A stretch of DNA of 64,000 nucleotides from positions 128,001-192,000 of the forward strand of contig CAVXVB010000004.1 in assembly GCA_963765205.1 (NCBI GenBank), read 5' to 3'. Position numbers and translations under genes: made by a program. How positions within the stretch are numbered: the stretch's first letter is position 1; each line of letters opens with the position of its first letter. This DNA comes from an uncultured Verrucomicrobiae bacterium. GTDB lineage: Bacteria; Verrucomicrobiota; Verrucomicrobiia; Opitutales; JABDGR01. Below are positions 43,225 to 57,182 of the stretch, piece by piece. The notes below the pieces were generated by a model. The model worked only from the letters and a program-made list of their open reading frames with translations, was not told where the DNA came from and made no database searches.

Positions 43225-43650
43225 TTACGTCGGTGGAATTGAAAAAATTTCCACCGCCCCGGCGCGGGCCAGTTGCGCGGGCGTCATGACGTAGACCCAG
43301 GCCTCGCCAAGCGAGGCGGACGCGGCGGAATCATCATCGGCAAAACACGCCGCGCGCACGCGTTGGTAATCGTTTTGTTCGGGCGACCGCGCGGCCTCGA
43401 AGCCTTCGAGCCGGTCGAAATTTTGCAGGACGGCATCGTCCCGCAGCACCAACCGCCAGCCCCGGATCCACCGCAAATCTTCGCCCTCCGTGGCCAGCGC
43501 CAGATAACCATCGTGTAACTGATACGCCCGCCCGCGCACCCGCGCCGGTGTGCTTTCCGCGACCCGGCCCTCGCAGAAGCGCGCCCAGTTCGACCCGCGC
43601 GGCACGAGCGAGCCGTAAACAAAGACCGCGAGATCCACATTGTCTCTCAT
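43225..43650 (-). CDS. Gamma-glutamylcyclotransferase (AIG2-like) family protein
   Basis: VFVYGSL, FDRLEG, YQRV, AWVY. Confidence 0.85.
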   Translation of the reverse strand: MRDNVDLAVFVYGSLVPRGSNWARFCEGRVAESTPARVRGRAYQLHDGYLALATEGEDLRWIRGWRLVLRDDAVLQNFDRLEGFEAARSPEQNDYQRVRAACFADDDSAASASLGEAWVYVMTPAQLARAGAVEIFSIPPT

Positions 43651-43772
43651 GCGCCCATCATGCCACCCTCGCCCGCCCCACCCAAGCCGGATTTTTCCTT
43701 GGCCCGCCGAACCCCCATCTCTATACTTTCCCGTTCCCGTCTTCGGTGCGGCCTCCGAACTCAGCATTCAGC

Positions 43773-45132
43773 ATGAACCGAGTCCACCTCAAAACTTATG
43801 GCTGCCAGATGAACGAACGCGACTCCGAAGCGGTCGCGGCGCTCCTGCGCGCGCGGGGCTATGCGCTGGTCGAGGACGAGGCGCTGGCGGACATCGTGCT
43901 GCTCAACACCTGTTCCGTGCGCGATTTGGCCGAGCAGAAGGCCATGGGCAAAGCCGCCCACCTGGCCAAACGCAAGCGGCGCAACCCGCGCTTCATCGTG
44001 GGCATTCTTGGCTGCATGGCCCAAAACCGCGGCGCGAACTTGCTTGACCGGCTGCCGGATTTGGATCTCGTCGTGGGCACGCAGAAATTCCACCGCGTGC
44101 CGGACCACCTCGATAATTTGCTCGCAACGATCCGCGGCGAAGGCCCGTGCCCCGCTACACTCGTGGGACCTCGACGCCGAGGCGGGTTCGCAAAACGAAA
44201 TCCGTGGGCACATGAGCGTGGACGGCGCACCGCAAGTCTCGGCCTACGTCTCCATCATGCAAGGGTGCAACATGCACTGCACGTTTTGCATTGTGCCGAA
44301 AACCCGCGGGTCGGAACGCTCGCGGCCACTCGACGAAATCGTGCGTGAGGCCGAAGAACTGGTGACGAACGGGACGCGCGAGATCACCTTGCTCGGGCAA
44401 ATCGTCACCAGCTACGGGCGGCGCGAATATCCGATGGTCAGCGGCAAAACACCGTTCGTACAATTGCTCGAACGCTTGCACGCGCTCCCGCAATTGCATC
44501 GCCTTCGCTTCACCTCGCCCCACCCCAGCGGGTTCAAGTCCGATTTGATCGCGGCGTATCGCGATCTTCCCAAACTCGGCGAATACGCGCACCTGCCCGT
44601 GCAAAGCGGTTCTGACCGGATGCTGCGGGCGATGAACCGGCCCTACACGCGCGATTCCTACCGGCGGCTCATTGAACAGCTGCGCGCGGCCCAGCCCAAA
44701 ATGTGGTTCTCAACGGATGTAATCGTCGGCTTCCCCGGCGAGACGGACGAGGATTTTACGGCCACACGTGATTTGTTCCGCGACGTCGGCTTCGAGATGG
44801 CGTATCTGTTCAAATACTCAACCCGCACTGGCACGCCCGCGGCAGAAATGCCCGACCAGGTGCCCGCCGAAGTCGCCGAGGCGCGCCACAGGGAATTGAT
44901 GGCACTACTAGAACAACGCTCACTCGCCCGCCATCAGGAACTCGTCGGTACGACGCAGGAAGTGCTCGCCCAGGAACCGGCGCGGCGTCCTCCAGGCCGC
45001 TTGCTGGGGCGCACGCGCGGCTTTCGCAAGGTGTTCTTTGACGCGCCCAGGCACCGCCTCGGCGAACTTGTCCCCGTGCGCATCACCCGCGCGACGGTTG
45101 CAGCGCTGGAGGGGGAGATTGGGGAATGCTGA
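43773..45132 (+). CDS. miaB: tRNA-2-methylthio-N6-dimethylallyladenosine synthase, frameshifted at 44165-44167
   Basis: KTYGCQMNERDSE, LNTCSVR, GCMAQ, radical SAM GCNMHCTFCIVP, RFTSPHP, TDVIVGFPGET, TRAM domain. Removing one G of GGG joins the frames. Confidence 0.93.
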
Positions 45133-46725: not shown

Positions 46726-47619
46726 TCATTGAAAAAGGTTACCCAGGTGTCCGCCCGCGCCCGCGCTCCCGACGAAGGCCATGATCATGCCGAAAAAGAC
46801 GACGATGAACACAATCATCACCACAAACATGATGATGCGATAAATTCCCATCAACTTGAAATAAAACCGCAACTGGTCGAGCACTCCGATCATATCCGCC
46901 TCCGACCCCGTGAAGGCGGCCTCCTGCGCCTTGGCGGCCGCTTTCCATAGCACGACGCCCAGCCAGATCGGCAGCCAGCAGATCACGATCCCCGGGCCAA
47001 ACACCATCCCCGCGCCGGAGATAAATGACAGGATTGCCAGGAACTTCATCCAGCCGCCCGCCTCCGTCAAGATCACCGCCAGGCGTTTAATTAACTGGGT
47101 GGAATCCGTTCCCGCCTGCCCGGAGTTTTGCGCCAGGGTGTGCGCCAGCGACGGCGACACCTGCGGCGAGAGGGTGAAACCCGATACCGACGACGCGCCT
47201 GCAGCATTTAATTCCGGCACCGAGCCGAGTGTTTGATACGACCCGCCTTCGGCCAGGCGCACCTGCGTCTGCGCGTTGGCGCGGCCTTCCCTCGCCCATT
47301 GACGCAATTGCTCCGCGCTCACGGGGCCGTATTCCTTCCCGTCGCCGCCTTGCATAAAATAGTTGGCACCAGGCCCGCTGGGCGCAACCGTCGGCCCGGG
47401 CGATGGCTGGGCAAATGAGGGCGCGTAGCCCGACCCTGACGCCGGCACCGCGACGTTCAATTCGGGCACCACTCCGAGCGCCAAATACGCGCCGCCCTCG
47501 GCCAGGCGCACCTGCGTCTGCCCATTGGCACGGCCCTCCACCATCCACTGCCGCAATTGCTCCGCGCTCACGGGGCCGTATTCTTTGCCGTCCCCGCCTT
47601 GCATGAAATAGTTTGCCAT
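46726..47619 (-). CDS. Tandem GYF_2 (DUF4339) domains plus DUF5362-like membrane domain
   Basis: Two near-identical units YFMQGGDGKEYGPVSAEQLRQW..EGRAN.QTQV (47455-47616, 47206-47367); WMKFLAIL...LRFYFKLMGI. Confidence 0.85.
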   Translation of the reverse strand: MANYFMQGGDGKEYGPVSAEQLRQWMVEGRANGQTQVRLAEGGAYLALGVVPELNVAVPASGSGYAPSFAQPSPGPTVAPSGPGANYFMQGGDGKEYGPVSAEQLRQWAREGRANAQTQVRLAEGGSYQTLGSVPELNAAGASSVSGFTLSPQVSPSLAHTLAQNSGQAGTDSTQLIKRLAVILTEAGGWMKFLAILSFISGAGMVFGPGIVICWLPIWLGVVLWKAAAKAQEAAFTGSEADMIGVLDQLRFYFKLMGIYRIIMFVVMIVFIVVFFGMIMAFVGSAGAGGHLGNLFQ

Positions 47620-53956: not shown

Positions 53957-54019
53957 GGTAGGGACGGCTCTCCGAGCCATCCACGGATCCCGCTAAAGCG
54001 GGAGAGAGGCGTCCCTACC
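53957..54019. repeat. GTAG-type REP doublet
   Basis: GGTAGGGACG...CGTCCCTACC inverted ends, with internal hairpin TCCCGCTAAAGCGGGA. Confidence 0.65.
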
Positions 54020-54095
54020 GAAGGATCGCATTGCCGGATGCAGATTTTTGTGGGATTTTACCGTCGGCGCGCGGTTACCTTGGGAAAGCGCCCCT

Positions 54096-56339
54096 ATGAC
54101 CCCCGACTCCGAATTGTTGCGCCGGTACGCCAGCGATGGTGACGAGGCCGCCTTTGCGGAGCTGGTCGGCCGCCATGTGGACCTGGTGTATGCGGCGGCC
54201 TTGCGCCTCGCCTACGGCAACGCGACGCTGGCCGAGGACGCGACACAAACTGTCTTCACCGATCTGGCGCGGAAAGCCGGCGCGCTGCGCGGCCACCCGA
54301 CCCTCACTGGCTGGCTGCACACGAGCGCCCGCTACGCCGCCCTGACGGCCCTGCGCAGCGAACAAGCCCGGCGCGCCCACGAACAGGAAGCCTGCGCCAT
54401 GCACGACCAACCCACTGTCCCGGCGGAAATTTCCTGGGCGCAACTGCGCCCGGTGCTCGACGAAGCCCTCGGCCGCCTCTGCGAGCGCGACCGCGACGCC
54501 GTGCTCCTGCGTTTCTTTCAGAACAAAAGCTACCGCGAAGTCGGTAGCATCCTCGGCGTGAGTGAAGACGCCGCGCAAATGCGCGTCGAGCGCGCGCTCG
54601 ATAAATTGCGCGGGCAATTTTCGCGCCGCGGCGTCGCCACCACCGCCGCGTTGCTGGCCTCGGCCCTTGGTGCGTATGGCGCAACCCCGCCTGCCCCCGC
54701 GGGTTTGGCCGCCGCCGTCGCCGGAAAGACTTTGGCGGCCGCGCCGGGTCTAGGCGCAGTTGGCTCGCATTCCCTGTTCGCGAAGCAATTTTTGTCCGCC
54801 TGGGTGGGTGCGGGCACCTTGGCCATCGTCGCCTTGATTTTAATTTTCCACCAACCCACCCCACCCCCGGCGAAAATTACCGCGCCGGTTACGCAAAATT
54901 CCCCGTCCCCACCCACGCCCATGAATGTCTCCCCAATCCTTAATCGCGGCGTGGTCGCTGCCGCCATCATCGCCGCCACGTCTGCCGCCTCCGGCCAAAA
55001 TACGAGTCCCGCTGCGCCGTCACCAGCGCCACCACCGATTTACGTCCCATCACCGACCCCGCCCGAGGCCGTCGTCCTGACCATCACTCCCACCCAGTCC
55101 GCACCCGCTGCCGAACTGCCTCCCGCGCCCGACCCCAATTCCTACTCTGCGCTGGTAACGGCGAACAACCGCTTTGCGCTCGACCTCTTCCGCCAATTCA
55201 ACCCCAAGCCCAATGAGAATGTTTTTTTCTCGCCCTACAGCATTTCAACCGCCCTCGCCATGACTTGGGCAGGAGCAAATGGTGACACGGAGGCCCAGAT
55301 AGCTAAGGTTCTGCATTTTTCGGAAATGTCGGATAACACGGTGCTGGCAAACTACTCTGCGTTGCAGCGCGCCACGACTCGGGCGCAAGCTCTGAGCGGC
55401 GCGCAACTGGCCATCGCCAATTCGCTCTGGGCCGAGCAGAACCCCGAACATCCCCTACTGCCGCATTACCTGAATCTAGTGCAGGCCTATTTTACTTCCG
55501 AGGTCATGCCAGTGGATTTCATCAAGCAGGGCCCCGTTGCAGCCCAGCAGATCAACGCCTGGGTCGCGGACAAAACCAACGGCAAAATAAAGGACCTCGT
55601 GCAGCCCGATGACGTGAACACTCTCACGCGACTCATCCTGGAAAACGTCATTTATTTCAAGGGTGCGTGGACGAGCCCGTTTTCACAGCAAGCCGACACC
55701 AACACGGAATTTCACGAAGTGGACGGCAGCGCCATCCCCGTCGTGCTAATGAATCAACAGGTATTCACCAAGTATGCGGATATCACCGACGCTCCCGTGC
55801 CCTGCCAGATTCTTTCGTTGTCCTACTCGAACAATCCGCAAGGCACCGCGCAAGGCCTGTCGTTTGTCGCCATCTTGCCCCACGCTGGCGATGATTTGAA
55901 CCCACTGGTCAAGGCACTGACCGCCGAGCAACTTGCCGGCTGGTTGAGAAAGCTCACGGAAATCGAGGTGAACGTTTATCTGCCCAAGTTCAAACTCGAA
56001 GAACAATACCAACTGGCCGATGCCCTGTCGGCCATGGGCATTAAAAACGCCTTTGACCGAGGACGGGCCGACTTCTCGAGCATAAACGGCGTCCGCGCTG
56101 ACGACCTTGATAGCCTATACATTTCCAAAGTCATCCACGAAGCAATCGTGGAAGTGGACGAACGGGGCACCGTGGCGGTCGCCTCGTCCAGCGTATCGTA
56201 TGCGGTGACCGGAATGGTTGTGTCGCAGCCGCCGGTCTTCCGCGCGGACCATCCATTTCTATTTTTGATCCGCGACGACGTGTCCGGCAGCATCCTCTTC
56301 CTCGGCCAACTGGCCAGCCCGGCGCCGTTGCAGCCTTGA
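54096..56339 (+). CDS. ECF sigma-70 factor fused via hydrophobic and Pro-rich segments to a serpin domain
   Basis: Sigma2 (AAFAELVGRHVDLVY..AEDATQTVF..GWL), sigma4 (DRDAVLLRFF..SYREVG..LGVSEDAAQMRVERAL). Serpin motifs NNRFALDLF, NVFFSPYSI, INAWVADKTNGKI, NVIYFKGAW, LPKFK, FRADHPFLFLIRD..ILFLG. One uninterrupted frame. Confidence 0.9.
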   Translation: MTPDSELLRRYASDGDEAAFAELVGRHVDLVYAAALRLAYGNATLAEDATQTVFTDLARKAGALRGHPTLTGWLHTSARYAALTALRSEQARRAHEQEACAMHDQPTVPAEISWAQLRPVLDEALGRLCERDRDAVLLRFFQNKSYREVGSILGVSEDAAQMRVERALDKLRGQFSRRGVATTAALLASALGAYGATPPAPAGLAAAVAGKTLAAAPGLGAVGSHSLFAKQFLSAWVGAGTLAIVALILIFHQPTPPPAKITAPVTQNSPSPPTPMNVSPILNRGVVAAAIIAATSAASGQNTSPAAPSPAPPPIYVPSPTPPEAVVLTITPTQSAPAAELPPAPDPNSYSALVTANNRFALDLFRQFNPKPNENVFFSPYSISTALAMTWAGANGDTEAQIAKVLHFSEMSDNTVLANYSALQRATTRAQALSGAQLAIANSLWAEQNPEHPLLPHYLNLVQAYFTSEVMPVDFIKQGPVAAQQINAWVADKTNGKIKDLVQPDDVNTLTRLILENVIYFKGAWTSPFSQQADTNTEFHEVDGSAIPVVLMNQQVFTKYADITDAPVPCQILSLSYSNNPQGTAQGLSFVAILPHAGDDLNPLVKALTAEQLAGWLRKLTEIEVNVYLPKFKLEEQYQLADALSAMGIKNAFDRGRADFSSINGVRADDLDSLYISKVIHEAIVEVDERGTVAVASSSVSYAVTGMVVSQPPVFRADHPFLFLIRDDVSGSILFLGQLASPAPLQP

Positions 56340-56371: not shown

Positions 56372-56680
56372 ATGAAAATTCTGGGCCGAACCAAGTTGGC
56401 CGAATTCTCCGCCCAATACCCCACGGCGGAAAGCTGGCTGGCCAAGTTCGAAAAGACGGCCCAAGCGGCCACTTGGCGGAATTTTGCCGACTTGCGCCGG
56501 CAGTCCTTCAATCATGCGGACCAGGTTCAGGCCAAGAGCGGAAGAACGCTGCACATCCTGGACAAGGGAAATACCCACCGCCTCATCGTTGCCATCAACT
56601 ACCAAGCCGGCGTCGTGACGATTTTGGAGTTTTTGACCCATGCCGATTACGAAAGACAGAAATGGCTCGACCGTCATTAA
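56372..56680 (+). CDS. higB: HigB-family type II toxin
   Basis: MKILGRTKLAEF..W..A.WRNFADL..F..AD.V..KGNTHRLIVAINY..FLTHADY. Confidence 0.8.
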   Translation: MKILGRTKLAEFSAQYPTAESWLAKFEKTAQAATWRNFADLRRQSFNHADQVQAKSGRTLHILDKGNTHRLIVAINYQAGVVTILEFLTHADYERQKWLDRH

Positions 56681-56747
56681 TAAAACAATTGCGAATAACG
56701 CAATTTTTCCGTTGCTTTTTTCCTCAACCTACTTTACCGTTTAAGCC

Positions 56748-57182
56748 GTGAAATCCGCCCCGTCCCTGGCCCGCCTGCCGATTTCGAGCATCCCCACCGC
56801 CTACGAGGAGCTGGTGCGGTTTTATCCGCCGCGGCCCCTGCATGACAAAACGGACCTGGCCGGCGCGATGGAAATTGCCGAATGGCTGACCGGCGCCGAG
56901 TTGAATGAAGACCAGTCGGATTACTTGAACGCCGTCGGAACTTTTATCGAACAATACGAAGGCGAGCAGGTGCCGCCGATTCACATCACCGGCCTGCAGG
57001 CGCTGGAGTTTTTGCTCGAAAACAACGACCTGAGCCGGAAGGACCTGGCCGCGCTGCTCAAGGTTCATCCTTCCGTGATCACCCGGATTTTCGCCGGCAA
57101 GCGCCAATGGAAACCGGTGGAACTGAAAGTCCTCAGCGAGCGCTTTGGCGTTTCCGCCGATCTTTTCCTGCCAACGGCCTAA
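56748..57182 (+). CDS. higA: HigA-family HTH antitoxin
   Basis: PPRPLHD, DYLNAVGTFIEQYE, LEFLLENNDLSRKDLA..SVITRIFAGKR..LSERFGVSADLF; directly after the toxin. Confidence 0.8.
   Translation: MKSAPSLARLPISSIPTAYEELVRFYPPRPLHDKTDLAGAMEIAEWLTGAELNEDQSDYLNAVGTFIEQYEGEQVPPIHITGLQALEFLLENNDLSRKDLAALLKVHPSVITRIFAGKRQWKPVELKVLSERFGVSADLFLPTA

Follow-up and report, generated by a model that had tools for sequence, protein, structure and literature searches.

One gene of the window (the whole 64,000-nucleotide stretch of DNA analysed here) encodes an ECF sigma factor joined through a single transmembrane (TM) helix to a complete serpin, and it is practically certain that this sigma2-sigma4-TM-serpin fusion is real. 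The reading that we prefer, and to which we give about an even chance, is that the gene acts as an autoregulated protease-defence switch with two products, a tethered, self-inhibited sigma-serpin and a free serpin. Membrane-fused ECFs and bacterial serpins are already known; the sigma-serpin fusion and the internal start that would yield the free serpin appear to be new.

The gene occupies positions 54096..56339 (+), and its translation is uninterrupted over 747 aa, with zero internal stops, giving the long product with the order sigma-TM-serpin. The N-terminus contains sigma2 (residues 23-90; 54162..54365, +; Pfam PF04542 Sigma70_r2, E 5e-9) and sigma4 (residues 121-172; 54456..54611, +; PF08281, Sigma70_r4_2, over 121-171 with E 3.4e-11, and PF04545) without sigma3, which is the layout of ECF (group 4) sigma factors, and scores 74.9 bits with NCBIfam TIGR02937 (sigma70-ECF; cut-off 42.9); the single 747-codon frame with both sigma regions, described in a first-pass annotation of the same DNA, is confirmed by these matches. 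The Ala-rich stretch mentioned there corresponds to two conserved Ala-rich helices following sigma4 (184-195 and 204-215; 54645..54740, +; AlphaFold, 86 sequences), and the hydrophobic segment, AWVGAGTLAIVALILIF, is a clear TM helix (235-251; 54798..54848, +), predicted N-in/C-out from hydropathy and the model, for which the Kyte-Doolittle mean is 2.4 and the Hessa-type values add up to -1.7 on a crude scale. The region designated as a Pro-rich linker does include a disordered Pro/Ala/Ser/Thr-rich linker (301-349; 54996..55142, +; pLDDT <50), but it also holds a signal-peptide-like segment that had been overlooked, namely a probable internal start, Met276, with a cleavable-type signal peptide (54921..54995, +; start model and sequence comparison). 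The serpin fold, expected from about 55150, is complete and lies at 55161..56321 (+), where residues 356-742 match positions 2-370 of the 370 positions of the Pfam Serpin profile (E 5.7e-107). A bipartite promoter-like motif (TTTGTGGGATT, 14 nt, CGGTTACCT) is found at 54047..54080 (+).

The junction between the sigma and serpin parts, where a hidden stop or frameshift had been feared, was compared with contigs from public runs, which span it with 0 differences and 0 gaps. The covering contigs are X1 record 5 (54674-55145), X3 record 18 (54658-54882) and X2 record 11 (54455-54672), which overlap to cover 54455-55145; X1 may be the source sample itself, and X1-X3 all belong to one study. Full-length fused orthologues exist in four of the nine other genomes of the host family (5/10 counting the present genome); together with the clean junction contigs, they rule out an assembly artefact.

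Hydropathy analysis indicates that the serpin most likely faces outward, as the first-pass annotation had proposed. The second hydrophobic stretch of the long product, segment 278-294, averages 1.65 in Kyte-Doolittle terms, with Hessa-type values that sum to +5.7 (versus -1.7 for the TM on the same crude scale), and is therefore too weak to stop transfer; a second TM that would leave the serpin in the cytoplasm is unlikely. AlphaFold modelling predicts pLDDT <50 for nearly all of residues 249-345, i.e., a linker of about 100 residues between the TM and the serpin. The model of residues 1-257, built with 86 sequences, has a pLDDT of 89.6 and a pTM score of 0.79, and the post-sigma4 helices reach pLDDT values of about 88-97. 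The modelled arrangement of the sigma regions deviates by 6.6-9.4 Å rmsd from CnrH-CnrY, SigW-RsiW and Bartonella RpoE-NepR and by 22-29 Å rmsd from polymerase-bound ECFs, these structural matches taking in residues 1-195 only; the compact predicted sigma resembles the anti-sigma-bound ECFs more than the polymerase-bound ones. We infer from the model that the sigma may be self-inhibited and held by the two post-sigma4 helices, a candidate built-in anti-sigma segment; the remaining deviation of 6.6-9.4 Å from the anti-sigma-bound ECFs counts against this part of the preferred reading. A search of the ESM Atlas with residues 172-305 gave no named match, the single match being unnamed (0.76).

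The predicted serpin part matches solved serpins (TM-score 0.88 over the target 4zk0) and has the complete fold of the serpin superfamily. Counting from Glu689, the scissile bond is predicted to be Thr705-Gly706, and the reactive loop, P17-P1' ERGTVAVASSSVSYAVT|G, lies at 56160..56213 (+). The hinge P17-P9, ERGTVAVAS, fits the consensus ExGTEAAAA (PMC10090351) at P17, P15, P14, P12 and P10 and departs from it by Val at P13, Val at P11 and Ser at P9; small residues are kept at P14, P12, P10 and P8. A loosened inhibitory-hinge pattern is passed by 64 of the 70 collected fusions, and the hinge is lost in the Opitutales-type fusions P0012 and P0016. The predicted scissile bond is about 450 residues away from the TM, beyond the floppy linker, so cleavage of the loop cannot simply pull the sigma free. 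After cleavage of the reactive loop, moreover, the serpin chain stays non-covalently held together by the established mechanism, which makes a direct mechanical release of sigma unlikely. The conservation of the hinge is explicable in another way, since a free serpin made from an internal start would suffice alone. The present genome also encodes a stand-alone secreted serpin with a canonical hinge (G000:C5:589525-590886), 45% identical to the fused domain.

Sigma-serpin fusions are not confined to this genome. Both domains were found in 33 of the best 120 homologues and, in a profile search against 50%-identity representatives, in 42 of the best 150 rows; at least 70 distinct fusions, including the present protein, were collected, forming 38 single-linkage clusters at 50% identity; recurrence of the architecture was what the first-pass annotation had looked to for support. 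All 70 collected fusions contain a TM, and 55 have a Met before it. In a serpin-domain tree (111 rows, a quick method, three likely eukaryotic matches left out), the label "fused" takes 13 changes, at least seven of them forced by well-supported branches, while shuffled labels need 29 on average; serpins were thus recruited, or lost, several times. Genome G009 has five intact sigma-serpin copies, three of them in tandem, and one frameshifted copy, and the reactive loops differ between the copies, including the tandem paralogues. When seven sigma-serpin loci from genomes G009, G005, G007 and G003 were compared together with the present gene and the locus G009:C3, a frameshift was found only in the latter. 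A search of 400 sampled Verrucomicrobiota genomes returned nine serpin-only matches and no full-length fusion, a result to be read as a floor given a strict first look and two candidates scored per genome. A fused serpin was found in one of 80 titled serpin loci, from an uncultured Opitutales (L067); the fused match P0061 is named Planctomycetota by its source, and other fusions appear planctomycete-like by sequence. Inspection of 11 loci by eye alone revealed no protease and no other conserved neighbour beside the fusions, which counts against the preferred reading.

Serpins are a frequent fusion cargo in PVC bacteria. Other arrangements, labelled by eye, include a frameshifted sigma-serpin followed by a secreted repeat-domain-serpin fusion (L033:6456-11061, G009), a serpin with a LysM-like domain in the same genome (L034:1255-2952) and serpins that follow ankyrin-like repeats or a long protein resembling a propeller (L051, L064 and L078).

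The sigma-TM part of the protein belongs to a family with many cargoes. The present genome encodes 17 ECFs with the same sigma core; in most of them the same Ala-rich helices follow, then a TM and an outer domain of unrelated type. Two planctomycete genomes have 30 and 38 matches, mostly ECFs. Any Pfam match was found for 11 of 68 cargoes from relatives (RCC1-like, WG repeat, PDZ, GspG-like, C-type lectin and weak ones), and 57 had none. One family ECF of the present genome (G000:C5:476291-478390) has a GspG-pseudopilin-like cargo by eye, its relative L123 matches PF08334, and the gene adjoins an opposite-strand gene of the M50 site-2-protease family. Two other family ECFs (G000:C7:55286-56281 and C7:124341-125120) end early and look out of frame, as a result of frameshifts or assembly errors.

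The family genes share an upstream motif, TTTGT(C/G)(C/A/G)G(A/G)TT followed after 10-14 nt by a weaker block, approximately (C/G)GTGnTATA, situated mostly 8-23 nt ahead of the start codon. The score of the present gene is 17.7 (10th-90th percentile of the family 13-26). Scores of at least 13 occur upstream of 23 of the 2842 predicted genes, and 13 of these 23 are family ECFs, a ranking that is partly circular because upstream regions of the family itself served as the training set of the promoter model; the stand-alone serpin of the present genome is not among the 23 best-scoring genes. Motifs of this sort usually mean autoregulation. We infer that the upstream motif may represent an autoregulatory ECF promoter; since it stands mainly before family genes, the predicted regulon of such an ECF would consist mostly of its own gene.

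Comparison of the family genes makes it very likely that they use a second, internal start. A Met ahead of the TM, in the context M-(S/T/N)-T-K-T-K, occurs in 83 of the 101 Opitutales family members (86 by a looser rule). In a start model trained on 500 of the 742 unambiguous starts of the present genome, with 11,286 internal ATGs as the background, 93% of the 83 genes have this Met above the 95th percentile of the background. The genes' own first Met is above this mark in 79% of the 101, and the controls in 4% of 80 (of 108) matched internal Met+K/R+TM sites, 4% of 26 Met162 sites and 6% of 80 cargo Mets; the paralogues in these counts are not independent samples. The start score peaks at the pre-TM Met codon and has a median percentile of 0.995 relative to synonymous resampling, and folding of the start window is 3 kcal/mol weaker than that of its own synonymous versions. 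After the pre-TM Met, Lys codons are split AAA:AAG 123:9, compared with 306:89 at true starts and 120:96 ahead of internal TMs. Four-fold sites between the family members are near saturation (0.46 vs 0.42), which argues that the start signature has been selected rather than inherited.

The planctomycete relatives show a signature of another kind at the same place. The matching Met is ATG in 51 of 66 planctomycete ECFs (four genomes), and the Gly five codons upstream is encoded by GGA in 31 of 37 cases, versus 275 of 1643 (17%) in the background and at most one third at the other 14 conserved planctomycete Gly columns; this GGA spells AAGGAG about 8-9 nt ahead of the internal ATG. A motif resembling Shine-Dalgarno (SD) precedes the planctomycete internal Met in 35 of 66 cases and other Mets in 24 of 223; likely planctomycete starts have it in 9 of 22 cases, the starts of the present genome in 33 of 742 and the internal Mets of Opitutales in 1 of 83. 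As judged from these codon and motif counts, the internal Met is marked in each lineage by the start signature usual there, without SD in Opitutales and with Shine-Dalgarno in planctomycetes. Ribosome pausing for membrane targeting, considered as a cause of the internal SD, is disfavoured, since the same Met in the lineage that lacks SD bears that lineage's own kind of start signature, likewise without SD. A separate promoter of the family type for the short product was not found before the pre-TM Met (83 genes) or before Met276: within 150 nt upstream of the pre-TM Met no family-motif score exceeds 9, and the best one ahead of Met276 is 8.1, versus 13-26 for the genes' own upstream regions, which suggests that both products come from one mRNA. 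A conserved Met with an intermediate start score, Met102 in the sigma2-sigma4 linker (window 54399-54401), and its equivalents exceed the 95th percentile in 44% of 78 cases and form a local peak; this could reflect a sigma4-only form or an effect of amino-acid composition.

In the present gene the candidate start lies behind the TM. Met276 (ATG at 54921) opens MNVSPILNR / GVVAAAIIAATSA / ASG|Q301, that is, a positive n-region, a hydrophobic stretch and a cleavage-type site, and the short product of 472 aa, or 447 aa once cleaved, would probably be an ordinary secreted serpin. A second Met with (A/V)-x-A|Q is also found in P0002, P0003, P0006, P0007, P0008, P0010 and P0011, and the start score of Met276 is 9.9, the 99.8th percentile of internal ATGs. 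None of the 101 family members has both Mets: 83 have the pre-TM Met only, eight the downstream Met with a signal peptide only and ten neither. The downstream type is confined to one weakly supported group, so the mutual exclusion may reflect few events. By the same kind of rule, ten serpin fusions with available DNA have the second Met in six cases, the first in one and neither in three. The evidence for the Met276 copy is weaker than for the family, because three non-Met positions in the C-rich linker of the present gene score equally high, the synonymous signal in the Met276 subclade is raised across the whole linker (z 1.2-2.8) and not only at Met276, and the homologue L021 has GTT at the Met276 position with the highest score. 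Use of Met276 as an internal start in the present copy is nevertheless probable.

The preferred reading combines these elements as follows. The long product, as seen in the sequence, is an ECF sigma tethered by one TM to an outward serpin, and the two post-sigma4 helices of the predicted structure, together with the membrane tether, would hold the sigma inactive. Translation of this mRNA would in addition begin at Met276, a step strongly suggested for the family and moderately for the present copy, producing a signal-peptide serpin that would serve as a free periplasmic or secreted inhibitor. Outside protease in excess of what the serpin can trap might then cleave the long product, either in the disordered linker or at AxG|Q, after which an RseP-type protease might complete the cleavage and free the sigma, by analogy with IutY and RsiV; M50 proteases are encoded in the present genome. 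The freed sigma would transcribe mainly its own gene, giving more serpin in both forms and closing the loop, with the serpin acting chiefly as an effector and as a guard of the linker that sets the threshold, not as a lever. By the same analogy, it is likely that the sigma is released by proteolysis; that protease load is the trigger falls slightly short of an even chance, and the trigger may be generic, as the same sigma-TM module carries many unrelated cargoes.

How much of the sensing falls to the serpin is where the alternatives diverge. The tethered serpin might be a specific receptor similar to RsiV, altered by bait-loop cleavage or by covalent trapping of a particular protease so that a site-1 cut, possibly the internal AxG|Q, is exposed and the sigma freed. 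The hinge kept in most collected fusions (64/70), the repeated recruitment or loss of serpins (at least seven events), the tandem copies with differing loops and the ligand-gated signal-peptidase cuts known from RsiV and RsiP (PMC4183432, PMC8844934) are consistent with such a receptor, but a disordered linker of about 100 residues separates the TM and the serpin, some 50 residues lie between the TM and the AxG|Q site, P0012 and P0016 have lost the hinge and the free serpin explains hinge conservation equally well; we regard it as unlikely. In another alternative, the sigma might respond to a generic envelope signal through the TM or the helices after sigma4, with the serpin being just the product switched on and one of many interchangeable exported cargoes. 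This would leave unexplained why every cargo is fused in frame to a sigma instead of sharing one operon with it, and why serpin fusion was repeated in two phyla; the module and promoter motif common to 17 paralogues here and 101 in the family, with unrelated cargoes, and a Met276-type signal peptide ahead of an RCC1-like cargo speak in its favour, and it seems rather doubtful overall.

Fortuitous capture, in which a duplicated sigma was read into a downstream secreted-serpin gene and the internal Met and signal peptide are relics, with no regulatory meaning to the fusion, follows a published model for planctomycete extensions (scenario d of PMC7671368), and it would account for the stand-alone secreted serpins that nest among the fused ones (P0013) and for the loss of the second Met in some copies. 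It is very improbable: the start signature, part of which falls on the sigma side, follows the sigma module whatever the cargo and outlives near-saturated synonymous sites, the TM is kept in every collected fusion (70/70), and only G009:C3 is frameshifted among the sigma-serpin loci compared. The earlier idea of a protease-sensing regulator set off by cleavage of the reactive loop has survived in part: the recurrent fusion, the universal TM, the probable outward position of the serpin, the conserved hinge and the compact predicted sigma support it, the serpin is at most a candidate sensor, and direct mechanical release of the sigma is unlikely. As a tentative extension of the two-product reading, PVC membrane-anchored ECFs may be self-contained sense-and-respond genes, each with a tethered sigma-sensor, a free exported cargo made from a selected internal start and its own promoter; the serpin members would be sensors of protease load whose output is their own inhibitor, and the bait loops of tandem copies would sample different proteases.

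Among described systems, ECF57 (formerly ECF01-Gob) shares the ECF core, a membrane-spanning C-terminal extension, a variable outer domain and many paralogues, and release from the membrane has likewise been proposed for it (PMC7826278). ECF57 is 100% planctomycete, with about two TMs, a conserved cysteine pair, no conserved promoter and WD40/homeodomain-like cargo (PMC7826278), whereas the present protein most likely comes from Opitutales, not from a planctomycete, and has one clear TM in its C-terminal extension, no conserved cysteines, a conserved upstream motif and a serpin cargo; the cysteine pair of ECF57 (sigma2 and sigma4) is absent from the invariant and near-invariant columns of the 86-sequence alignment. 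The passage on this group in the supplement of PMC7826278 makes no mention of an internal start. Duplications of planctomycete ECFs with varied extensions (PMC7671368) give the same picture as the present family. IutY of Pseudomonas putida (ECF243) also combines a cytosolic ECF, a TM and a periplasmic domain in one polypeptide (PMC5411451, PMC8999054), and its sigma is released by Prc and RseP proteolysis (PMC5411451); it differs in its cell-surface-signalling anti-sigma ectodomain, its need for a siderophore receptor and the absence of a serpin, and a second product is undescribed in the available portions of PMC5411451 and PMC8999054. In SigV/RsiV and SigP/RsiP, cleavage by signal peptidase and activation of the ECF are controlled by an ectodomain that binds an enzyme (PMC4183432, PMC8844934). 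In these Firmicutes systems, however, sigma and anti-sigma are separate, and the ligand is lysozyme or that of a beta-lactam sensor, not a protease. RsiV is itself also an inhibitor of lysozyme. The secreted prokaryotic serpin chloropin (PDB 8GXV; PMC10090351) has the full fold, a signal peptide and a small-residue hinge, and the short product would be a protein of this type; the known secreted prokaryotic serpins differ in being stand-alone inhibitors without a link to transcription, and the present hinge is off ExGTEAAAA at three positions.

A literature search based on listings found no paper on a sigma-serpin fusion, in agreement with the first-pass annotation, which knew of none, or on an internal start in such ECFs; Jogler 2012, Wiegand 2020 and a 2019 review on ECFs with regulatory extensions lie outside its scope and might list a serpin extension. 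The word "serpin" has 0 matches in PMC7826278 and in PMC7671368, articles and supplements included (the first supplement being incomplete and the second perhaps so), and "sigma" and "fusion" have 0 matches in PMC8233489. The physiological targets of bacterial serpins are largely unknown (PMC10090351), and the preferred reading, if true, would tie a serpin to transcriptional control and reveal a bacterial route to answer outside proteases. It is a stated open question whether planctomycete ECFs gain any function from their large, variable extensions (PMC7671368), and the internal start bears on it; if the cargo is made as a separate exported protein, many PVC ECF genes would each hide an unannotated second product, on the scale of the 17 ECFs here and of the 30 and 38 matches, mostly ECFs, in the two planctomycete genomes.

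Several features near the fusion deserve mention. A REP-like inverted repeat with 16-nt arms and a 31-nt loop (53957..54019) lies upstream of the promoter motif and is probably not part of the sigma-serpin system; public-run contigs with loose ends at this position suggest that it is copied elsewhere. A HigB-like toxin and HTH antitoxin pair (window 56372-57182, +) begins 33 nt past the stop of the fusion and was not seen beside the fusion in the relatives whose loci were read. Further upstream, the gene at 43548-45132 (+), which we take to be a MiaB-like radical-SAM gene, is apparently split across two overlapping frames, probably by an indel, and tandem GYF_2 domains are joined to DUF5362 at 46726-47619 (-).
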